Origin: Candidatus Bathyarchaeia archaeon
Lineage (GTDB): Archaea > Thermoproteota > Bathyarchaeia > Bathyarchaeales > Bathycorpusculaceae
Length of the DNA stretch: 60,277 nucleotides
Assembly (NCBI GenBank): GCA_049515895.1
Contig: JBEKTQ010000018.1
Coordinates: 1-60,277 of the forward strand
Reading direction: 5' to 3'
Under the pieces are notes generated by a model, which was not told the origin of the DNA, ran no database searches, and was given only the letters and a program-made list of their open reading frames with translations. Position 1 is the stretch's first letter, and every line of letters begins with the position of its first letter. A program made the position numbers and the translations under genes. This document shows positions 5,999 to 59,860 of this stretch, in pieces.

Positions 5999-7294
5999 AT
6001 GTCAGTCGTTGGAAGCGCAGATCCGGGAAGCATCGCATGGGTAATAACCGCAACCGCCCTAGTTATGCTAATGACCCCCGCCTTAGGGTTCTTCTACGGC
6101 GGCCTAGTAAGGAGAAAGAACCTCGTATCAACTATAGCCCAATGCTTCATAATATTTGCAGTCATAAGCATAGTCTGGGCTCTATGGGGTTATATGCTTG
6201 TATTTGGACCCACAAGCAACCACATAATCGGCTTCAGCCCAAGCCTACTGGGCATGAATGGCCTCAGCATAAACGCCGTCAACACACAACTTGCTCCTAA
6301 CATCCCCGAGTTGCTATACTTCGCATTCCAACTCAAGTTCGCAGCCATCACACCAGCTTTAATCGTCGGTGCATGCGCTGAAAGGATACGTTTTAGGTCA
6401 CTACTCATTTTCATAGTTCTCTGGTCGACCTTTATTTACGCGCCTATAGCATGCTGGGTTTGGAACCCCAACGGTTGGCTCCATAATTTAGGCGCAATAG
6501 ACTTTGCAGGTGGTATAGTTGTGCACATTTCCTCAGGCATCTCAGCTCTAGCAGCGGCGCTTGTTGTAGGAAGGAGAAAAGGCTGTGCTATCCCCTGGCA
6601 AAATCACATGAAAGCGTTAGACCAGAAGGATCATGCGACAGAGTTTAAGCCAACAAACATCCCGTACGTGCTTTTAGGTGCAGCGCTGTTGTGGTTCGGG
6701 TGGTTCGGCTTCAACGCAGGCAGCGCATTAGCTGCAAACGGCTTAGCCGTCTCTGCGCTGGTAACCACGAACTTGGCGGCGGCTGCGGCGGCGGTAAGTT
6801 GGATGCTAGCAGACTGGGTGCGGAAAGGAAAGCCGTCGGCGATAGGCATGGCAACGGGCGCAGTAGTTGGGCTAGTAGTAATTACTCCTGCGGCGGGGTA
6901 CGTCAGCGTAGGAGCGGCTCTAATCATCGGCTTGGTCGGCGGGGTCATTTCGAACTCGGTGGCTAACTGGAGAGCAGGCAGATCCCGCATAGACGATGCA
7001 TTAGATGTGTTCGCATGCCACGGCGTGGGAGGAATCTGGGGTTCAATCGCAACAGGCATATTCGCATCAGCAGCCATAAACGCTTCAATAAAAGGCGGCT
7101 TGATCTTCGGAAACGTGCATCAATTCCTCGCTCAGTTAGCGGCGATAGGTATCGTGGTGCCGTTTGCATTCTTCGGCTCCTATGCGTTGCTTAAATTGGT
7201 GAACGTGTTTTCGCCGCTAAGAGTAAGCGAGGAAGCAGAAGACGCAGGCTTAGACATGAGTGAGCACGGCGAAGAAGCCTACCAGCTAGACTAG
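5999..7294 (+). CDS. amtB: Ammonium transporter 1
   Basis: DFAGGIVVH, LLWFGWFGFNAGS, DDALDVFACHG (twin His), GLDMSEHGEEAY. Confidence 0.97.
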   Translation: MSVVGSADPGSIAWVITATALVMLMTPALGFFYGGLVRRKNLVSTIAQCFIIFAVISIVWALWGYMLVFGPTSNHIIGFSPSLLGMNGLSINAVNTQLAPNIPELLYFAFQLKFAAITPALIVGACAERIRFRSLLIFIVLWSTFIYAPIACWVWNPNGWLHNLGAIDFAGGIVVHISSGISALAAALVVGRRKGCAIPWQNHMKALDQKDHATEFKPTNIPYVLLGAALLWFGWFGFNAGSALAANGLAVSALVTTNLAAAAAAVSWMLADWVRKGKPSAIGMATGAVVGLVVITPAAGYVSVGAALIIGLVGGVISNSVANWRAGRSRIDDALDVFACHGVGGIWGSIATGIFASAAINASIKGGLIFGNVHQFLAQLAAIGIVVPFAFFGSYALLKLVNVFSPLRVSEEAEDAGLDMSEHGEEAYQLD

Positions 7295-7523: not shown

Positions 7524-8852
7524 ATGGTTGAACAAATAAGCGGTATAGGTGCTGTCGAGGGGGCAAATGTGGGAGCAGCAGACATAGCATGGGTGTTAAT
7601 GTCAACAGCGCTTGTGATGCTGATGACTCCAGCCTTGGCTTTCTTCTATGGCGGCTTAGTCCGAAGAAAAAACCTGGTCTCCACCCTTGTGCAGTGCATG
7701 ATAATCTTTGCGGTGGTGAGCCTCGTCTGGTTATTCTGGGGTTACAGCCTCGTTTATGGACCAAGCGTCGGCGGATTCATAGGCAATCTATCGCTTTTTG
7801 GCTTAAACAACATAACATTATCTAGCGTCTATCCTTCCGCTTCAGCCATCCCGGAAATTCTGTTCTTCGCGTTTCAGCTTAAATTTGCGGCAATCACCCC
7901 CGCTTTGATTCTGGGCGCATGCGCGGAAAGGATACGTTTCAAGTCGCTTCTGATCTTTGTTGTTTTGTGGTCTACCCTGATTTATTCTCCGATTGCCAGT
8001 TGGATATGGAACCCATCAGGGTGGCTGCATGTGCTTGGTGCGGTGGACTTCGCAGGCGGAATAGTTGTACATATCGCCGCGGGTTTGTCAGCTTTGGCGG
8101 CGGCGCTTGTTCTGGGTAGAAGACAAGGCTGCGTCTTCTGGAAAGACCAGCTTAAAGCTTTAGACCAAAAAGCCCCCACCAAAACAGTGCCCATGGGATC
8201 AGAGTTTAAGCCAACAAACATCCCCTATGTGATTTTGGGTGCAGGTTTACTCTGGTTCGGCTGGTTCGGCTTCAATGGCGGCAGCGCATTGGCGGCCAAC
8301 AGCATCGCGGTGTCCGCTGTTGTAGTAACCAACTTGGCAGCGGCAGCAGCAGCTGTAAGCTGGATGCTCATGGACTGGCTAATCAAAGGAAAGCCCTCTG
8401 CAATTGGAATTGCAGTTGGGGCAGTCTGTGGCTTGGCGGCAATTACGGCGGCTTCAGGGTACGTCAGTTTTTGGGCTGCAGTAGTCATCGGGTTAGCTGC
8501 AGGAGTAATCTCCAACCTGGTGGCTAACTGGCGTGCTGGAAGGTCAAGAATTGATGATTCACTGGATGTTTTCGCTTGCCACGGAATCGGCGGAATGATT
8601 GGCGCAATATCGATTGGTTTGTTCGCAACCGCCGCCGTGACCCCAGGCGTTACAGGCTTAATTTACGGCAACGTTCACCAACTCGCGGTTCAGCTTCTTG
8701 CTGTCGGAGTGGTGTCTGCCTTCGCATTCTTCGGCACCTACGCCTTGCTGAAAGTGGTTGACCGCTTCTTCCCGCTTCGAGTTAGCCTCAAAGAAGAAGA
8801 GGATGGCTTAGACATGAGCCAGCATGGCGAAGAAGCATACCACTTGGACTAG
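7524..8852 (+). CDS. amtB: Ammonium transporter 2 (tandem paralog)
   Basis: Same Amt motifs; long stretches identical to the 5999-7294 protein. Confidence 0.97.
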   Translation: MVEQISGIGAVEGANVGAADIAWVLMSTALVMLMTPALAFFYGGLVRRKNLVSTLVQCMIIFAVVSLVWLFWGYSLVYGPSVGGFIGNLSLFGLNNITLSSVYPSASAIPEILFFAFQLKFAAITPALILGACAERIRFKSLLIFVVLWSTLIYSPIASWIWNPSGWLHVLGAVDFAGGIVVHIAAGLSALAAALVLGRRQGCVFWKDQLKALDQKAPTKTVPMGSEFKPTNIPYVILGAGLLWFGWFGFNGGSALAANSIAVSAVVVTNLAAAAAAVSWMLMDWLIKGKPSAIGIAVGAVCGLAAITAASGYVSFWAAVVIGLAAGVISNLVANWRAGRSRIDDSLDVFACHGIGGMIGAISIGLFATAAVTPGVTGLIYGNVHQLAVQLLAVGVVSAFAFFGTYALLKVVDRFFPLRVSLKEEEDGLDMSQHGEEAYHLD

Positions 8853-15861: not shown

Positions 15862-16446
15862 ATGGCAAAAACCGATAAACCTCTAACTAAAAATGCACTT
15901 GTCTCCATGCAGGTAATCGATTCGCAAGGTCATTTGGTTGGAAAAGTTAAGGATGTCGCCTTCGTCGTTGGACAGCTTGGCATTTCACTTTCAGTAGAAA
16001 ACGAGGATGGTGAAATTCAATGCATCCAGTGGCAGGACATTCAAGCAGCCTCGGATTTCATATTATTGAAGCCTCAATTTTCAGGTGGCAACAAAGGAGA
16101 ATGTGCAAATGAAGAGACTCAGGTTTTCCAAACGGAACAGACAAAGCAAACGCAGCAAACAGAACCCAAGAAACAAACTGCTCAGCCGCTTTGCCCAACA
16201 TGCAACCAGCCACTTACTTGGATTCCGCAATATAGCAGATGGTATTGCTACAACGACAAGAAATACGTCAATCCGGAGGAATCTATGAAAAAAGGAGACT
16301 GGGAAGAGTCAGTCAAAGATCAAAGGACGCAGCAAACGTCCACGAAAAAGTCCAGTCCGCCTTTGTGCCCAACTTGTAATAAGCCTCTCACATGGATTCC
16401 ACAGTACAACAGATGGTACTGCTACAACGACAAAAAATACGTTTAG
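15862..16446 (+). CDS. PRC-barrel protein with two zinc-ribbon-like repeats
   Basis: MQVIDSQGHLVGKVKDV..WQDIQAASDFILL plus two copies of PLCPTCNxPLTWIPQYxRWYCYNDKKYV. Confidence 0.8.
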   Translation: MAKTDKPLTKNALVSMQVIDSQGHLVGKVKDVAFVVGQLGISLSVENEDGEIQCIQWQDIQAASDFILLKPQFSGGNKGECANEETQVFQTEQTKQTQQTEPKKQTAQPLCPTCNQPLTWIPQYSRWYCYNDKKYVNPEESMKKGDWEESVKDQRTQQTSTKKSSPPLCPTCNKPLTWIPQYNRWYCYNDKKYV

Positions 16447-44533: not shown

Positions 44534-44609
44534 TGGTAGCCCGGGAGAGACTCGAACTCTCGTCAAGGGCTCCAGAGGCCCCTATGCTTGACCGCTACAC
44601 CACCGGGCT
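44534..44609 (-). tRNA. tRNA-Gln(CUG), intron-less, CCA encoded
   Basis: AGCCCGG/CCGGGCT acceptor (A1-U72), anticodon arm GGGGC-CTCTGGA-GCCCT, GTTCGAGTC T-loop. Confidence 0.97.
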
Positions 44610-45905: not shown

Positions 45906-45990
45906 GCCTTACCGTAAATTGTATGATGGATAAGGAGTGAACTTTCCATATTTAAAGTTGAATCAAGTGTTGTTTGGTGTGAAAAGTTTT

Positions 45991-46210
45991 GCGCGGTGGG
46001 AAATTCGGGCAAATTTGTTGTTTGTGTTTTGGGTTGCTTTCTTGTGGAGAAGCTTGGATCAGCTGCAGGTTGCGTCTCCTATCGTCTCCTAAAGTCTCCT
46101 ATCGTCCGCCATCGTCTGCCAAAGTCTCCCAAAGTCCGCCATCGTCTGGTAAAGTCTCCTAAAGTCCTAACGTCAACAAAATTTAATAGGCGGCCACTAC
46201 CGTCAAAATA
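45991..46210 (+). repeat. Leader plus 10-bp array element, copy 2 (GTC-type array)
   Basis: Leader to GCAGGTTGCG (46065-46074), then 10 units nnnGTCnnnn at 46071-46170 and a degenerate tail. Confidence 0.9.
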
Positions 46211-49168: not shown

Positions 49169-49251
49169 ATATAGTGAGATTCATTGATCGGGAGATGAAG
49201 ATCAAGGAGCTCTAACCAAAAGAAATTATAAAAAATTTGTCAACAATGCAA

Positions 49252-49420
49252 AGCACCTCGTCACAGTTAGGTGCTCGTTATCTCTGTGACTGTTGGAGAA
49301 TGATAACAGAGCACAGAATCTAAAGGCAAGGAGAGGTTTTTTGGTGGTTTGATTGGAATTGGAAATTCAGTTGGGTTGTAGGAAAATTGCAATTTAAGGG
49401 GGTGGGGCGGAATTGAAGGC
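49252..49420 (+). repeat. Overlapping double-hairpin element, copy 1
   Basis: AGCACCT..AGGTGCT and GTGCTC-GTTATC..GATAACAGAGCAC, then a G/T-rich tail shared with 54315-54455. Confidence 0.85.
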
Positions 49421-51753: not shown

Positions 51754-52158
51754 TCAAAGGAGGATTTGAAGGCCCGCTTCCCTGAAGTGGTTGTCAAACG
51801 TGAATGCGTTAGGGATTGAAAGATCTTTTATCAAAGCAAAACTTGTGCAGTCTGTGAAACTCCATGATTTACCATCAGATCGTTTGAACATATCAAGTGC
51901 TTTTTCAAATAAGTCATCTTCCACCCAAAATACGCGAACACTCTTGCTTTTCATGATTTTATTAATAAAGGCGGAGGCTGAAGAAGGGCTTCTTCTTGAC
52001 CACAATAAAGTAATTGTTTCGTCCAGTATGTAATCGGTGGTTACAGAAATACCGTATTTTCCTGAGGCTATAATGGAAAGGAACTTGCATGCTGCTTCAT
52101 GATTTACATCGTCTTCTACTTCGAGGGCGTACCAGGCGCTTGTATCTACGAATATCAA
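51754..52158 (-). CDS. vapC: PIN-domain VapC toxin
   Basis: IFVDTSAW, ILDET, SFTDCTSF, FTFDNHF. Confidence 0.93.
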   Translation of the reverse strand: MIFVDTSAWYALEVEDDVNHEAACKFLSIIASGKYGISVTTDYILDETITLLWSRRSPSSASAFINKIMKSKSVRVFWVEDDLFEKALDMFKRSDGKSWSFTDCTSFALIKDLSIPNAFTFDNHFREAGLQILL

Positions 52159-52391
52159 GTGTTTTCACCATACAGATACTTGTCGTGTTCTTCGGAGCCG
52201 CGATCTCTTTTTCCAGTTCGTCTGGAACTGGGTGGGCTTGTAAAAATAGGGTCATTCGGGTTCACGTTGCCTTCGACGGTGGTTTTGATGGCCTCACGTA
52301 GGACTTCCTTGATGCTTTTTGAGTTTCTTTTTGCGTATTCTTCGAGGAGTTTGTGCTCCGCTTCTGTAAGAGTTGTTTGCACGACTTTCAT
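52155..52391 (-). CDS. CopG/RHH antitoxin
   Basis: VVQTTLTEAEHKLLEEYAKRNSKSIKEVLREAI..EEHDKYLYG; 4-nt overlap with the toxin. Confidence 0.88.
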   Translation of the reverse strand: MKVVQTTLTEAEHKLLEEYAKRNSKSIKEVLREAIKTTVEGNVNPNDPIFTSPPSSRRTGKRDRGSEEHDKYLYGENT

Positions 52392-52846
52392 GTTACATCA
52401 TGAATGAAAGATGAGTGATGAAAAATATAATCTTTCCATTATTCTGTAAAAAAGAAACAGAAATTGGAATAGAAAAGAAATTATCTTTTAGAGTAAATAG
52501 CTCTAATGCCGCCAAGAACGAATCCTAAAATAAAATAAAAACAGCCATCCCAACCAAAAAATATAGAGAAAATATTGCTCCAAAACCGCTAGCCACAGTC
52601 AACCACATAGCCAATTTATCGCTTCGTTTTCTCATTGGTGTAAATCATCAAAAGAAAAATAATTTACAAACAGTTTCATCTCAAAAAGTGATAAATTAGC
52701 TCTTTTAGGAGTTCTGCGTGCTTCTCGTCACCCGACTTAAGTTCTTTCTCGGTGTGAAAAACCGTCAACTGAATTTCGGGAAGCCCTGCTTTAGAAAGCG
52801 GCAATACCTAAGAACTTCCCAGCAGTAACCTACAAAACCGAATCAA

Positions 52847-52922
52847 TGGAGCTAGAGGCTGGGAGTTTAACCCAGCGTATATGGCAATGCTCGCCACGGT
52901 CTATTCGCTCGACCACTCTCGC
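52847..52922 (-). ncRNA. tRNA-Cys-like element (non-canonical or pseudo-tRNA)
   Basis: 76-nt cloverleaf GCGAGAG/CTCTAGC, GTC/GAC, GTGGC-GAGCATT-GCCAT, GCTGGG-TTAAACT-CCCAGC, U73-CCA; TATA-like CTTAATTT about 25 nt upstream. Confidence 0.7.
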
Positions 52923-53100
52923 AAAAATCGATGTGGCATACAGTAAATTAAGTATTATTCCCGCATAGAATTATTCTTACATGGCTCCCAAAATGAACTT
53001 CGTAGAACCTAGTAAACAGACGATTTTCGACATGGATACCGAAACAGACGAAGATTTGACAGAACCGCTAATAGCTAAATAAAATGGCAAAAAAGCGTCG

Positions 53101-53250
53101 GCGCGCGTGGAAAATCCGGCAAATTTGTTGTTTGTGTTTTGGGTTGCTTTTCTTGTTTTCAGCTTGGATTGGCTGCAGGTTGCGTCTTAAAATCTCTAGA
53201 AATCTCTGTAATTCTCCCAAAATCTCTTTAAATCTCCCGAAATCTCCTCA
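53101..53250 (+). repeat. Leader plus 10-bp array element, copy 4 (TCTC-type array)
   Basis: Leader nearly identical to 45991-46074, GCAGGTTGCG at 53175-53184, six AATCTCnnnA-like units. Confidence 0.9.
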
Positions 53251-53278
53251 ACCCAGAATGGCGTCATCGATGGATAAG

Positions 53279-53345
53279 TGAGGCCGAGAAGTGGCAGGAT
53301 AAAATTCAAGGGGCAAAAGTGTTCTTGAAAAAAGTTTGCAATTAA
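53279..53345 (+). pseudogene. 3' gene-end remnant, duplicated at 54249-54313
   Basis: EAEKWQDKIQGAKVFLKKVCN* versus EAEKW*DKIPEAKAFLKKVCE*. Confidence 0.6.
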
Positions 53346-53456
53346 AGCGCCTTACGCTTGAACCAGCTCAAACCAAAAACAAATCCAAAATGATCACAGC
53401 AGTATCAATTGCGGATAAATGCACTGGGTTTAGTTAATAGTGTCTTTCAGCCAAGA

Positions 53457-53858
53457 TTACTGGAAAATCAATTTTAAGGAGTCAAGTTTGCCTAAGTGTT
53501 TCTGGTCGTTTGAGTAAACTTCTGTGATGCCTAGCCGCATCATCAAAGCAAGGTTCACGCCATCGTTGAAGTCAATTTGTTCCGCAGACATGTTGTTAGC
53601 CCCCATCAGCAAATCATCCCCACTTAATTCGATGATATCAAGAGTTTGATAGGACATTATCTTCTCAAGTGTAGGCTTGATGTCTCCTTGCCTGCCCATA
53701 GCTTCTAGCACCCAAGCCACTTCACACAAAACCAATGTAGATGTTATGGCTGCTTCACCTTCTTCAATGCGCTCAAGAATATTCTTAGCTATTTTCCCAA
53801 AACGCGGGTGCGCTGTAAGGGTGTAGATAAACACGTTAGTATCTACGAACCGGGTCAC
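53457..53858 (-). CDS. vapC: PIN-domain VapC toxin
   Basis: RFVDTNVF, VLCEV, DFNDG, YSNDQKH. Confidence 0.93.
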   Translation of the reverse strand: MTRFVDTNVFIYTLTAHPRFGKIAKNILERIEEGEAAITSTLVLCEVAWVLEAMGRQGDIKPTLEKIMSYQTLDIIELSGDDLLMGANNMSAEQIDFNDGVNLALMMRLGITEVYSNDQKHLGKLDSLKLIFQ

Positions 53859-54106
53859 TGGAAATCCTCAACCAGCTTCTTTCGAATGTATTCTCGCGCT
53901 AACTGTTTTGGTTCATCAACGGGGTTAATCAGGTTCACAGAGCCGTATAACGCCTCTGTAGGCTTTTTGTGGGTTTCCACCGGCACTAGGCAGATACGTC
54001 CCATGTATTCTGTAATGATAAGTCGTATGCCTTCATGTACACCATATTTTTCGCGCAACCGCTTAGGCAAAACAATTCGTCCATACTTACCAACTTCAAC
54101 AGACAC
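53855..54106 (-). CDS. AbrB/MazE-type antitoxin
   Basis: VEVGKYGRIVLPKRLREKYG; GGTGG SD before GTG at 54106. Confidence 0.9.
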   Translation of the reverse strand: MSVEVGKYGRIVLPKRLREKYGVHEGIRLIITEYMGRICLVPVETHKKPTEALYGSVNLINPVDEPKQLAREYIRKKLVEDFQ

Positions 54107-54314
54107 GCTAAACCACCGACAAACTATCACATAAACGACAAATATAAATTTTTTGCCAAGAAAATCAATTTACGACAAAATTGAAAATCAATTAGTAACA
54201 TACCTTGGTAATATAGTGCGTGAGGTGTCAGTTGCCCCGTGGAGCAGTGAAGCGGAGAAGTGGTAGGATAAGATTCCAGAGGCAAAAGCGTTCTTGAAAA
54301 AAGTTTGCGAGTGA

Positions 54315-54455
54315 AGCGCCTCGTCACGGGTAGGTGCTCGTTATCTCCGTGGCTGTTGGAGAATGATAACGGGCATAGGCGGGGGTTGAGGTTGGTTAAT
54401 TGGTTTAATTGGAATTGAGTGGATTTGCAGGAAAGTTACAATTTTTGGGGGGGCT
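54315..54455 (+). repeat. Overlapping double-hairpin element, copy 2
   Basis: AGCGCCT..AGGTGCT and GTGCTCGTTATCTCC..GGAGAATGATAACGGGCAT. Confidence 0.85.
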
Positions 54456-54535
54456 GGCTTTAAATCTGGTTTTTTTGTAATTTGCGTAAAAAAGTTTATG
54501 TATGCATTTGGTATCTGTTGTATACGGTGGTTGTG

Positions 54536-54856
54536 TTGACACTTAAACCGTTAGCCGTAAGAGTTCCTGCTGAATTAGAGAAAGAGATTATTGAAATCGT
54601 AAAACAGGAAAAATTAGACAAAGCCACGGTTGTCAGAAACCTTCTTGAAGTGGGCATAAATGAATGGAGAAAGCAAACTGCCTTAGAGTTTTTGCAGAAG
54701 GGAAAAGTAACTTTCGCCAAGGCCGCAGAGATTGCAAATCTTTCACTTTGGGAGTTTTCTGATTTGATTAAGCAGCGCAATATTGAATGGGTCAGATTTG
54801 CGCCTGAAGATGTTGAGAAAGAGTTCAGGGAAGCGTCGGCGGCGAAGCGCAAGTGA
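54536..54856 (+). CDS. UPF0175-family antitoxin
   Basis: GKVTFAKAAEIANLSLWEFSDLIKQRNI. Confidence 0.88.
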   Translation: MTLKPLAVRVPAELEKEIIEIVKQEKLDKATVVRNLLEVGINEWRKQTALEFLQKGKVTFAKAAEIANLSLWEFSDLIKQRNIEWVRFAPEDVEKEFREASAAKRK

Positions 54857-55362
54857 AGCCGTTAGTTTTCAATTCTACACCCTTGATCTACTTATCCAAA
54901 GCTGGATTGAGCGGGATTATTGAGCGTTTGAATACAGAAAAGTTGACGTGCCCTTTGGTTAAGTTTGAGGTTGTAGACAAGGGGAAACAAAAAGGAGTCC
55001 CTGACGCTATTGCTCTGGAGAAATTGTTTGATAATGGAGTTTTCAAGTTACGTGAACCTAAAGACAAGCTATTTCTTTCGCGCTTGTCTGAGACGCATGG
55101 GCTTCATATTGCAGATGCTGAGGTTTTGGCTCTCGCCAAAGAGTGTGATGGTTTCGCCGTTATTGATGATGAGGTTGCCAGGAAAACAGCGAGAGTGTAC
55201 GGAGTCGAATATGTTGGCACGCCGTATATTTTGGAGAGGGCTGTTTTTGAAGGGCTCATTTCGAAAGCAGAAGCTAAACAGGCCGTGAATGACATGGTTT
55301 CATCTGGCTGGCGGTGCAGCGTCGAGAGCTATGCGAAGATTATTGCGTTATTAGAAAAATAG
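54853..55362 (+). CDS. DUF3368/PIN-domain toxin-like protein
   Basis: VFNSTPLIYL, LHIADAEVLALA, IDDEVARKTA..VGT. Confidence 0.88.
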   Translation: MKPLVFNSTPLIYLSKAGLSGIIERLNTEKLTCPLVKFEVVDKGKQKGVPDAIALEKLFDNGVFKLREPKDKLFLSRLSETHGLHIADAEVLALAKECDGFAVIDDEVARKTARVYGVEYVGTPYILERAVFEGLISKAEAKQAVNDMVSSGWRCSVESYAKIIALLEK

Positions 55363-56042: not shown

Positions 56043-56483
56043 TTACTTATCAGGTGAAAGAAACTCCTGTTCAGTCTGGACAGTTACTTCTTTTATTTTT
56101 GCAAAGTCAATATCATCGCTGATTACAATTGAGTTGTTGTAATATGCGGTTGCTGATATGAACGCGTCAGCTATCGGTATACTGTATTTTCCCTTGAATT
56201 CACTTGCCTTGGCCGCTATTTTTTCATCTATCACATATTTCTTTATGGCTGCGGCGTATCGGACGTCTGCAATTCGTGCTTTAGCTAGGTCAACTCTGTT
56301 TTCATGCGAATATTTGTAATAGATTTCCGTTAAAGTGACTACGCTTATACCTGCCTCTATGTCTCCATTTTCGATGAGTAACATTATTCTTTGAACATTT
56401 TCCCAACCTGCCTCCGATGCAAAGAGCTTAATGAGAGGCTTAGTATCCAGTATAAGCTTAGGCTTCTGTGACTCGATTGTCAA
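56043..56483 (-). CDS. vapC: PIN-domain VapC toxin
   Basis: LILDTKPL, TLTEI, PIADAFI, ISDDIDF. Confidence 0.92.
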   Translation of the reverse strand: MTIESQKPKLILDTKPLIKLFASEAGWENVQRIMLLIENGDIEAGISVVTLTEIYYKYSHENRVDLAKARIADVRYAAAIKKYVIDEKIAAKASEFKGKYSIPIADAFISATAYYNNSIVISDDIDFAKIKEVTVQTEQEFLSPDK

Positions 56484-56724
56484 ATTCCCTATCCCACTCT
56501 TTTCGCGTTGCTTCTAATTCCTTTGAGGGTTTTCTGTTTGCAAACAATTCTTTGTCGATGCCGGCAAGCTTAGATAGTTTGGAAACTCGAATCAATCTAA
56601 CAGTGTTATCTTCGCTGACGACCAAAAATTTTTCGCCCTTGACTATCTTCAGCTGTTTTCTTATTTTTGAAGGAAGGGTTATCTGCCCTTTAGAGGTAAC
56701 AGTAACACTTTCTTCTTCCAACAA
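56458..56724 (-). CDS. AbrB/MazE-type antitoxin
   Basis: VTVTSKGQITLPSKIRKQLKI. Confidence 0.92.
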   Translation of the reverse strand: MLEEESVTVTSKGQITLPSKIRKQLKIVKGEKFLVVSEDNTVRLIRVSKLSKLAGIDKELFANRKPSKELEATRKEWDREFDNRVTEA

Positions 56725-57720: not shown

Positions 57721-57763
57721 TGCCTCAGAAAGAGAAAACCAGCCGCAAAACCCAGGTAGATTT

Positions 57764-57807
57764 AGGTGCTCGTTGTCTCCGTGTCTGCTGGAGAATGATA
57801 ACGGCAC
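57764..57807 (+). repeat. Hairpin element, copy 3 (partial)
   Basis: AGGTGCTCGTTGTCTCCGTGTCTGCTGGAGAATGATAACGGCAC. Confidence 0.85.
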
Positions 57808-58489: not shown

Positions 58490-59860
58490 TCATGCGTTGT
58501 CAGGTTTTCGTCTTAAACGTCTGACGGCTATAACTGTGAAAACTGAAATGACTTCGGCACCGGCTATGCCAACGGCAAGCACAGACCCTGATGACGTTGC
58601 TAACGACGTTGAAGGTAATAAGAATTGTACTGTCACTTGTGAACCTCCGGCTACTAGATTTGCGTCGAAGTTCGTTGTGTACCACACGTAGAAGTTATTG
58701 GCGTCTTGCGTGTAGCCCTGGTTAAGAGCCTTCTGGCCATCTATGTATACGACTGGGTTTATCCCGTAGGAAATGGCGTTTTTCGGAATAGTCATATTGC
58801 CAAGGCCTGCCGTTCCGTTGGGTCCTGTTATTTTGAAGGAAACTGTTGTTATGGTGGGTTTGTTTGATGTGATTGTGGCGTTGGATATCTGTGAACTGGT
58901 TACGTTGCCGCTGATGGCAAGATCAACTATGGCACCACTACCTGTTGTCACTGGGACAGTTTTTGTTGAAGTAGTTGGAGTAGGTGATGGCGTTATTGTC
59001 GGTGTTGGGGTTGGGGTGAGAGTTGCTATTGGGGTTTGAGTTGGAGTAACTGTAGGGGATGGAGTAAGAATTGGAGTGGGAGTTGGCGTTGGAGATGGCG
59101 ATGGAGTAGGAGTAGCTGCGGATGTTGGAGTTGGTGTTGGCGAGGAGCTGGGAGTCTGGGTTGGAGTAGCCGTAGGAGTTGGGGTTAGAGTTGGAGTTGG
59201 TTTGGGAGTTGCCGAAGGAGTTGGAGTAGGTGTAGGAGTGGGAGAGTGGGAGTTGGAGTCGGTGTCGGAGTGGGAGTTGGGGTTGGTTTGGGAGTTGGTG
59301 TTGGTGTTGGAGTTGGGGTTGGGGTAGGAGTGGGAGTTGGGGTTGGTGTAGGAGTTGGAGTTGGAGAAGGAGTCGCAGTTGGTTTGGGAGTTGGTGTTGG
59401 TGTTGGAGTTGGTGTTGGGGTAGGAGTGGGAGTTGGGGTTGGTGTAGGAGTTGGTGTTGGAGTTGGGGTTGGTGTAGGAGTTGGAGTTGGAGAAGGAGTC
59501 GCAGTTGGTTTGGGAGTTGGTGTTGGTGTTGGAGTTGGTGTTGGGGTAGGAGTGGGAGTTGGGGTTGGTGTAGGAGTGGGAGTTGGAGTCGGTGTTGGTG
59601 TTGGAGTTGGTGTTGGCGAGGAGCTGGGAGTCTGGGTTGGAGTAGCCGTAGGAGTTGGGGTTAGAGTTGGAGTTGGTTTGGGAGTTGCCGAAGGAGTTGG
59701 AGTAGGTGTAGGAGTGGGAGGCCGTAGGAGTTGGAGCGGGTGTTGCCGCTGGTGCATCCGCACCAGTCACCGTAACAGTACCTGGCCTAACACCAATCGA
59801 GAAAGCGCATATCAATAATGAAATTAGAAATGCGATCGTTAGGATTTGAATTTTCTTCAT
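58490..59860 (-). CDS. Surface protein: signal peptide, long Pro/Thr repeat linker, C-terminal beta domain and TM anchor; linker partly read in a shifted frame
   Basis: [16 protein letters not shown] signal; [31 protein letters not shown]; two compensating frameshifts in the repeat. Confidence 0.8.
58975..59745 (-). repeat. Degenerate 6-bp (CCAACN) coding tandem repeat with internal longer duplications
   Basis: GGAGTT/GGTGTT/GGGGTT run; a ~120-bp block is duplicated 476 nt apart. Confidence 0.95.

Follow-up and report, generated by a model that had tools for sequence, protein, structure and literature searches.

tRNA-Sec, tRNA-Pyl, allo-tRNAs, and the selC* tRNA-Cys have each opened new biology and yielded tools for genetic-code expansion. 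For tRNA-Cys, the identity set read by SepRS consists of G34-C35-A36 and U73. CysRS reads the same set (PMC7609411). The unusual arms of tRNA-Sec and selC* tRNA-Cys are paired with private factors (PMC7609411), and phage tRNAs with changes in the anticodon loop are predicted to be insensitive to VapC-type tRNases (PMC10264068). Here we examined a 76-base element on the minus strand of contig JBEKTQ010000018.1 from a Candidatus Bathyarchaeia archaeon (assembly GCA_049515895.1). The whole stretch analyzed, 60,277 nucleotides (nt), is called the window; it is contig C18 of the source genome, labeled G000, which comprises 3.18 Mb in 53 contigs. The window DNA occurs in peat metagenomes. A previous sequence-only reading of the window had pointed to a noncanonical tRNA-Cys-like cloverleaf lying among VapC toxin genes. 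We found that this cloverleaf is a maintained member of a family of cysteine-tRNA look-alikes in peat Bathyarchaeia, which we call group I.

Read from position 52922 to 52847, the element is 76 nt long and has T73 and an encoded CCA end; the sequence, GCA anticodon, and U73 reported in the earlier reading were recovered identically. Its acceptor stem of 7 base pairs (bp) includes a G3.A70 mismatch and adjoins a T-stem of 6 bp (GCTGGG/CCCAGC). The D-stem has 3 bp plus G.A, the anticodon stem has 5 bp, and the variable region has 4 nt. The D-loop (AGCGAAT, 7 nt) is without GG, the T-loop (TTAAACT) is without C56, and the 7-nt anticodon loop (GAGCATT) holds GCA at its center, which leaves A33, T37, and T38 around it. 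The minimum-free-energy fold is the cloverleaf (-28.8 kcal/mol; z = -2.56; equaled by 4 of 200 shuffles). In this fold the anticodon loop is reduced to 3 nt, as the earlier reading had proposed; this closure holds for the element itself but not as a family trait, with pairing between positions 33 and 37 possible in 18 of 29 distinct family sequences. ARAGORN, one of the checks that the earlier reading had suggested, made a single call in the window, a tRNA-Gln at 44534-44609, and Rfam at its gathering threshold returned the same single tRNA; neither called the element. RF00005 gave no tRNA match in 52700-53100 even at an E value of up to 10. An Rfam long noncoding RNA match at 52700-52804 (12 bits; E, 2.5) was rejected as noise.

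A blastn search of 61 relatives returned one true homologue, in genome G007, at 78% identity. This homologue has a canonical CUGCAAA anticodon loop, yet it shares the layout of a 7-bp acceptor stem and a 6-bp T-stem (7/6) and has an odd T-loop. A covariance model built from the window element and the G007 copy was searched against 120 genomes of the genus and gave 14 matches of 66 to 103 bits in 10 genomes (group I), with three copies on one contig in G133 and two copies each in G118 and G066. The same model gave 4 further matches of 53 to 58 bits (group II), and canonical tRNA-Cys scored at most 51 bits (43.4 and 43.8 for the canonical copies in G000). The element itself scored 103 and 81.5 bits with covariance models. 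Family members were also present on one more genome contig (L089) and on 19 metagenome contigs from peat or wetland that a 3'-half pattern retrieved, so that the family totals 34 copies and 29 distinct sequences. L089 and the 19 metagenome copies are all full length and score 79 to 100 bits with the refined model; no partial copies were found among the 19 contigs. The metagenome pattern, the source of 19 of the 34 copies, fixes several 3'-half positions, including U73 and CCA, and leaves the anticodon free. The 15 copies from the model search carry the same 3'-half residues as those found by the pattern.

Beyond these sets, no further group I member was found in 151 sampled genomes of the order (best other match, 69.4 bits). 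A pattern scan of a genome collection returned 5 Bathyarchaeota contigs and 21 unrelated bacterial matches; this pattern demanded a D-loop gap of 3 nt or more and therefore missed members with short D-loops. A pattern scan of IMG/VR returned 4 contigs, none with a family member (three carried ordinary tRNAs of 24 to 39 bits, and one had no model match). RF00005 detected 3 of the 12 other group I copies tested, at 38 to 41 bits (L060 not among them), and ARAGORN detected 0 of 13.

Family members are 72 to 76 nt long, have U8, and keep G1-C72 and C2-G71 in an acceptor stem of 7 bp. The D-stem reads G-U-C/G-A-C and is followed by G13.A22. The D-loop ranges from 4 to 7 nt and usually consists only of A14-G15-A-A21, a minimal loop that keeps the partners of U8 and the Levitt pair (G15-C48) and drops positions 16 to 20, including G18G19. 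The T-loop reads U54-G55-A56-A57-A58-N-N (U-U-A-A-A in the window), with G at position 55 in 28 of 29 sequences and A at position 56 in 27 of 29; GG in the D-loop was seen in 0 of 29. The anticodon stem has 5 bp, and the variable region has 4 nt and ends in A-C. In all 29 sequences the acceptor stem and the T-stem together give 13 bp, not the 12 bp of the 7/5 elongator arm, and every member has 13 nt rather than 12 on the 3' strand between the T-loop and U73. The residues G34, C35, A36, U73, and CCA are invariant (29/29). Around the invariant GCA, the family shows 13 variants of the anticodon loop (N32-N33-G-C-A-N37-N38), and the host's canonical loop is CTGCAGA. Position 33 is T in 17 sequences, C in 7, A in 4, and G in 1; its entropy of 1.51 is among the highest in the molecule. 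Position 37 is A in 22, G in 4, and T in 3.

The four-arm cloverleaf of the family is supported by covariation. On the model-fitted alignment, 94.9% of cells were paired, compared with 34 to 49% when the partners were slid, and 7 pairs changed on both sides. None of 500 shuffles reached the observed percentage of pairing, number of both-side changes, or covariation score, and 8 of 500 did so for further pair types. RNAalifold on an independent MAFFT alignment gave the same 7/6 cloverleaf, with the same acceptor, D, and 6-bp T stems. The second and third T-stem pairs covary, while the sixth is an invariant G:C without covariation of its own. Homologues with compensatory changes, which the sequence-only reading had named as a check on the element, are thus present.

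The window's own variant points the same way. Its 76 nt recur in full (76/76) in contigs L105 and L112, whose flanks match the window at 87%/82% and 70%/64% identity, respectively; contig L104 is the same DNA as the window. The nearest different variant, in L116, shows 7 differences, all at unpaired positions, and has the window's G3.A70 mismatch and its G32-A33. Two other peat or wetland runs also yield contigs with the L116-type variant. Selection keeps the cloverleaf, and the claim that random decay would not keep the stems while changing the loops was borne out by the covariation, by the 76/76 identity between diverged flanks, and by the loop-only changes in L116. The residues read by CysRS and SepRS (G34-C35-A36, U73, and the CCA end) are likewise kept by selection, and the elements on which efficient ribosomal decoding depends (U33, the purine at 37, the G18G19/psi55C56 elbow, and the 12-bp acceptor/T arm) are unconstrained or absent.

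Conservation extends beyond the gene on both sides. Most family copies are preceded by the motif GGAATAATNCTTAAT; in the 3.18 Mb of G000 this motif has one exact match, at the element, and the other 33 matches (up to 2 mismatches allowed) are mismatched. Upstream conservation spans the first ∼55 nt, including GGAATAATNCTTAAT, and the T-rich trailer is conserved over ∼25 nt; homology stops beyond these limits. The trailer is common to L105, L112, L116, and L089, and the sequence past it diverges. The TATA-like box that the earlier reading had placed about 25 nt upstream is present near -26 (TTAATTTA). Because conservation ends past the leader and the trailer, the unit is a module of ∼170 to 280 nt made up of promoter-like motif, gene, and trailer. 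A conserved small open reading frame (ORF) in the conserved upstream region was ruled out, since a 1-nt indel shifts the frame between the window and L112.

Group I is supernumerary, since a canonical tRNA-Cys is present in every holder genome that could be tested. An apparent lack of the canonical gene in some holders proved to be an artifact of the model: the family model missed the gene in G007, G066, and G101, and its 3' half is present in all three. G122 (56% complete) gave no match to the canonical 3' half. Canonical 3' halves without a model match lie at G007:C29, G066:C46, G101:C12 (two sites), and G086:C2, which suggests that part of the genus has tRNA-Cys genes that contain introns or are truncated at contig ends. 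The closest sampled relatives of G000, which have no group I member, are 78 to 83% identical to it in a CysRS paralogue and 90 to 91% identical in deoxyhypusine synthase. At the conserved deoxyhypusine-synthase/tRNA-Gln locus of the close relatives G117, G128, and G130, homology to the window ends at 45967, 47229, and 48960, respectively; in these three genomes, nothing at that locus matches the window from ∼49 kb onward, the part that contains the AAA-ATPase, the toxin-antitoxin genes, and the element. The family lies in variable islands rich in toxin-antitoxin genes, and its distribution is accessory. No integrase was present among the 25 commonest of 76 neighbor families.

Group II resembles group I in its UGAAA/UGCAA T-loop, in a D-loop without G18G19, and in GCA, U73, and CCA, and it scores 53 to 69 bits with the family model. 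In contrast to group I, its stems are 7/5, its variable region has 5 nt, and its anticodon loop is the canonical YUGCAGA. ARAGORN calls it as tRNA-Cys in most cases (3 of 4 copies in the genus and 4 of 4 checked outside it). Its place beside DUF1616 and wHTH genes (wHTH - unknown - DUF1616 - tRNA) is conserved across three families of the order; the loci are L063 (G131:C4), L071 (G128:C22), L072 (G108:C5), and L126 to L129. No description of group II was found in the literature searched. In G108 (98% complete) and G131 (96% complete), group II is the only tRNA-Cys-like match, which makes it very probable that translation in this lineage can use a tRNA-Cys without the elbow. Group II shares the missing G18G19 and the U-G-A-A-A T-loop with group I, so these features alone do not argue against translation. 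Of the tRNA features that the sequence-only reading had listed as lost, all are indeed absent from the element, but the missing G18G19 and the odd T-loop are not special to it. Relative to group II, group I alone has the extra T-stem pair, a minimal D-loop, A37, and no constraint on position 33. Group I probably derives from group II, which already lacks the D-loop/T-loop elbow. In G131, an Acetyltransf_6 (FemAB-like GNAT) gene and a neighboring gene of 235 amino acids (aa) without a Pfam match lie between two identical group II copies.

The source genome carries two canonical tRNA-Cys(GCA) genes on contig C8. One adjoins CysRS, with SepRS 1.3 kb further, so that tRNA-Cys, CysRS, and SepRS lie within 4.5 kb (G000:C8:96987-101509). 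With this cluster, the organism has both the direct and the indirect route to Cys-tRNA. A further CysRS, a 411-aa paralogue, has HIGN and KMSKS motifs and a shortened C terminus and shares 36 to 39% identity with the canonical enzyme. Most of the 120 genomes carry this paralogue beside canonical CysRS and SepRS, several of them with stop-interrupted copies.

Compared with canonical archaeal tRNA-Cys(GCA), group I keeps the cloverleaf, GCA, U73, encoded CCA, U8, A14, G15, T54, and A58. It differs in its 7/6 rather than 7/5 stems, its 4-nt variable region, its D-loop of 4 to 7 nt without G18G19, and a T-loop of U-G-A-A-A (U-U-A-A-A in the window) instead of T-psi-C-R-A. Further, group I mostly carries A37, whereas the canonical type carries G37 in the genus, and its position 33 is variable. 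Group I also evolves fast: its copies differ by 10 to 30%, whereas canonical tRNA-Cys is nearly identical across species of the genus.

The acceptor domains of tRNA-Sec and selC* tRNA-Cys are 13 bp long or tRNA-Sec-like (PMC7609411, PMC5389517); group I, with 13 bp in total, is alike in the noncanonical length of its acceptor/T arm, and selC* tRNA-Cys likewise joins U73 and GCA to an unusual arm. Group I differs from both in the 7/6 split (not 8/5, 9/4, or 8/4), in having neither a long variable arm nor a 6-bp D-stem, and in its archaeal rather than bacterial hosts. No SelB-like gene or other elongation factor was seen among the 25 commonest of 76 neighbor families, and no dedicated CysRS was seen beside the copies. 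In tRNA-Pyl and type II mitochondrial tRNAs, which have a compact core that lacks the D/T-loop elbow, the D-loop is likewise small and free of G18G19 and the T-loop lacks T-psi-C (PMC7609411), but group I has two nucleotides, not one, between the acceptor and D stems, an anticodon stem of 5 bp, and GCA, and its gene is supernumerary, of nuclear type, and preceded by a promoter motif of its own. Phage tRNAs predicted to evade VapC, PrrC, or colicin-type tRNases keep the anticodon while the loop flanks are unlike those of the host tRNA (PMC10264068); group I is alike in this and in its link to tRNA-nuclease conflict through nearby PIN genes (below). It differs from the phage tRNAs in lying on contigs of cellular metagenome-assembled genomes, with none found in IMG/VR by pattern, and in the alteration of U33, the arm, and the elbow. 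No account of a 7/6 tRNA-Cys-like family without an elbow came to light in the literature searched, which included passages of PMC5424206, PMC7609411, and PMC10264068; the supplementary gene lists of PMC5424206 may name Bathyarchaeota tRNA-Cys variants.

The neighbors of the element in the window are PIN/VapC toxins with AbrB/MazE-type or RHH-like antitoxins, and 3 of the 16 PF01850 matches in G000 fall in the window segment from 51.7 to 56.5 kb. Contexts vary by copy: secreted Ig-like proteins, an archaeosortase-like protein, and polysaccharide genes occur, as do a histidine kinase and toxin-antitoxin genes. The surroundings of the 14 genome copies, taken out to 4.5 kb, contain 130 ORFs; 13 of these belong to PIN, by far the most frequent Pfam family, and those ranked next, at 3 members each, include MazE antitoxins and nucleotidyltransferases of toxin-antitoxin type. 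Based on whole-genome PIN maps, the nearest PIN gene is no more than 5 kb away for 7 of the 14 copies, compared with 1.06 expected from an upper-bound random rate (P, ∼3e-5). These copies are in G000, G023, G133 (one of three), G102, G123, G118 (one of two), and G122. With the discovery locus removed, 6 of 13 copies are near a PIN gene, compared with 1.01 expected (P, ∼2e-4), and only 2 of 36 ordinary G000 tRNAs are within 5 kb of one. The VapC context first noticed in the window thus generalizes statistically to the family.

We tentatively favor a reading in which the element is a functional small-RNA gene from a fast-evolving accessory family of tRNA-Cys paralogues, and in which group I is a tRNA-Cys surrogate that is probably chargeable, decodes poorly, and is tied to conflict with tRNA-cutting PIN toxins. 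It is ranked first because it alone uses the signal from the genomic context. The RNA would be transcribed from its own promoter, matured, and charged with cysteine or phosphoserine (Sep), and it would not be a normal decoder. It could then serve as an alternative substrate, a decoy or sponge, for PIN nucleases that target tRNA; or it could be a spare Cys-tRNA whose changed anticodon-loop flanks escape cleavage.

Several points weigh against this reading. Half of the copies (7 of 14) have no PIN gene within 5 kb, the neighboring PINs belong to several subfamilies rather than to one partner, and the enrichment statistic treats related loci as independent, though they are not. Shared residence in variable islands could explain the PIN excess in large part. 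That tRNA-Cys is the target of these archaeal PIN proteins is an assumption. A resistant spare would still have to decode, which fits poorly with the 13-bp arm and with the 12 of 29 sequences that have lost U33; a decoy, in turn, would have no obvious need for U73 and CCA. The invariance of the 3' half is partly set by the search pattern for 19 of the 34 copies. Moreover, when the window is compared with L116, ∼20% of unpaired positions are different, against 33 to 38% in the flanks; this slower change in the loops amounts to relaxed constraint and gives no indication of diversifying selection. Finally, a look for transcripts found none, with no RNA run listed among the datasets that carry the window stretch.

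A dedicated nonribosomal carrier is a possibility that we regard as somewhat unlikely. Here the RNA would be charged by CysRS or SepRS and kept from aEF1A and the ribosome by the 13-bp arm, the missing elbow, and the relaxed anticodon loop; its Cys or Sep would be handed to an aminoacyl-tRNA-dependent enzyme, or the RNA would be a scaffold for tRNA-dependent Cys synthesis. Precedents are the nonproteinogenic staphylococcal tRNA-Gly with altered T-loops and the peptide aminoacyl-tRNA ligases that use Cys-tRNA. An invariant charging set beside relaxed decoding features fits such a carrier, as does the presence of both SepRS and CysRS in G000, and 13 bp is the total length that separates tRNA-Sec from elongator tRNAs (PMC7609411). 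However, no partner gene is conserved beside the copies, where neighborhoods vary and PIN is the top family. The short CysRS paralogue was rejected as a private synthetase because its presence in most of the 120 genomes means that it is not codistributed with the family. A Fem-type partner was also rejected: the Acetyltransf_6/FemAB-like genes of G000 sit on another contig, and such genes adjoin only group II copies, in three genomes, all within the genus. A search for the LanB-type family PF04738 gave no match in G000 but is uninformative, as control genomes also gave nothing.

We consider it unlikely that group I is an ordinary spare, island-borne tRNA-Cys isoacceptor that decodes UGU/UGC in a lineage tolerant of unusual tRNA-Cys architecture. 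The group II core, with its UGAAA-type T-loop and no G18G19, speaks for such tolerance, being called by ARAGORN, syntenic, and the sole tRNA-Cys-like match in G108 and G131. In addition, 3 of the 12 group I copies tested pass the Rfam tRNA threshold, U33 is kept in 17 of 29 sequences, and a purine is kept at 37 in 26 of 29. Position 33, on the other hand, behaves as unconstrained, the window copy has both A33 and U37, and the sixth T-stem pair lengthens the acceptor/T arm in every sequence. The divergence among group I copies, set against the near identity of canonical tRNA-Cys, and the restriction of the family to 10 of 120 genomes likewise argue against an ordinary isoacceptor.

It is highly improbable that the element is a functionless relic, either a decaying tRNA-Cys pseudogene or a remnant of an att site. 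Its residence in a variable island with dispersed repeats, its being missed by tRNA detectors, and the fact that the window copy is the most deviant family member in its loops would suit a relic. The covariation, the complete conservation of the 76 nt between flanks of 64 to 87% identity, and the restriction of changes to loops would not, nor would the finding that all 34 copies are full length and share the conserved upstream motif, without partial copies among the pattern-found contigs or an integrase among the 25 commonest of 76 neighbor families. There is also only a very slim chance that the element is a tRNA-like processing tag, whose cutting by RNase P or tRNase Z would set the end of a neighboring transcript and leave the RNA as a by-product: it does lie between two same-strand vapBC operons, with a leader and trailer conserved within its subfamily, but the neighboring genes vary by copy, a promoter-like motif stands directly upstream, and a tag would not need the invariant GCA and U73.

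The features of the locus, together with the Cys-charging enzymes of G000, are listed in Table 1.

Table 1. Coordinates of the element, its flanks, the surrounding toxin-antitoxin genes, and the Cys-charging enzymes (window positions unless a contig is given)
Feature	Position	Strand	Evidence or remark
tRNA-Cys-like gene, group I member	52847..52922	-	Sequence, fold, covariance-model match, covariation, 76/76 identity in L105 and L112
Conserved promoter-like leader, with GGAATAATACTTAAT at 52961-52947 and TATA-like TTAATTTA	52923..52978	-	Flank comparison; putative promoter
TATA-like TTAATTTA	52951-52944	-	-29 to -22 relative to base 1
Conserved 3' trailer, TTGATTCGGTTTTGTAGGTTACTG... with T-run	52820..52846	-	Flank comparison; possible archaeal terminator
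vapBC-like pair upstream of the element: PIN (53457-53858), AbrB/MazE-type antitoxin (53855-54130)	53457..54130	-	PIN 53499-53849, 49.9 bits; MazE_antitoxin, 3.2e-6
vapBC-like pair downstream of the element: PIN (51754-52158), RHH-like DUF6290 antitoxin (52155-52391)	51754..52391	-	PIN 51775-52155, 42.4 bits; DUF6290 weak, 3.2e-4
Toxin-antitoxin pair: UPF0175 with DUF3368	54482-54856 and 54853-55362	+	Pfam matches
Toxin-antitoxin pair: PIN with AbrB/MazE antitoxin	56043-56483 and 56458-56724	-	Pfam matches
CysRS	G000 C8:97248-98639
CysRS paralogue, 411 aa	G000 C8:10945-12177 (L120:1498-2733)
SepRS	G000 C8:99959-101509

The window also holds several repeats. D4 is a dispersed intergenic repeat of ∼75 to 82 nt, found at 53117-53198 and also at 46007, 46295, 56898, and 57089. 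It has 73 blastn matches over the G000 contigs, is often followed by the 10-nt periodic repeats D6/D12, shows a very high summed contig depth in four peat runs, and has no Rfam match; it could be MITE-like or an RNA or regulatory element of a new type. Between toxin-antitoxin cassettes lies an intergenic module of ∼57 to 140 nt with three overlapping inverted repeats, D8/D11 (D8 at 49251-49307, 54314-54370, and 57746-57802; D11 at 53271-53352 and 54240-54321). Five copies of this module are present in G000, three in the window and one each on C12 and C5, and may represent either a structured RNA or a site of recombination that makes the island cassette-like.

A periodic array of 12/18-nt repeats (58963-59744) lies inside a 456-aa ORF (58490-59860, minus strand) without a Pfam match, which probably encodes a low-complexity surface protein; a homologue of this ORF adjoins a family copy in G133 (L059:13199-15796). 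D10 (16166-16442) is a tandem-duplicated segment of ∼100 nt, and D10-like sequence at 74 to 88% identity is present on the family-bearing metagenome contigs L112 (595-722) and L116 (1-205). The segments at 6301-6938 and 7847-8499 (D3, D5, and D7), which belong to neighboring ∼1.5-kb segments, are ∼72% identical and are probably tandem paralogous genes.

Compared with the literature searched, the family has a new cloverleaf layout, in which a 7/6 arm of 13 bp, the lack of an elbow, and a free position 33 are combined with an invariant Cys anticodon and U73. Standard tRNA finders miss genes of this type. The family is kept by selection in uncultured, abundant peat archaea that have both CysRS and SepRS, and its placement beside PIN genes raises the question of whether archaeal VapC-type toxins target tRNA-Cys and whether cells or mobile elements answer with tRNA surrogates. 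It is possible, if doubtful, that group I is a new functional class, a chargeable, 7/6, elbow-less, nondecoding mimic that would act as an RNA antidote or sponge for PIN/VapC toxins directed at tRNA-Cys or as a private carrier of Cys or phosphoserine to a nonribosomal process and would spread as a ∼170- to 280-nt module among the toxin-antitoxin islands of peat Bathyarchaeia. If a nondecoding role is true, the family could become a new functional class among noncanonical tRNAs and tRNA mimics.

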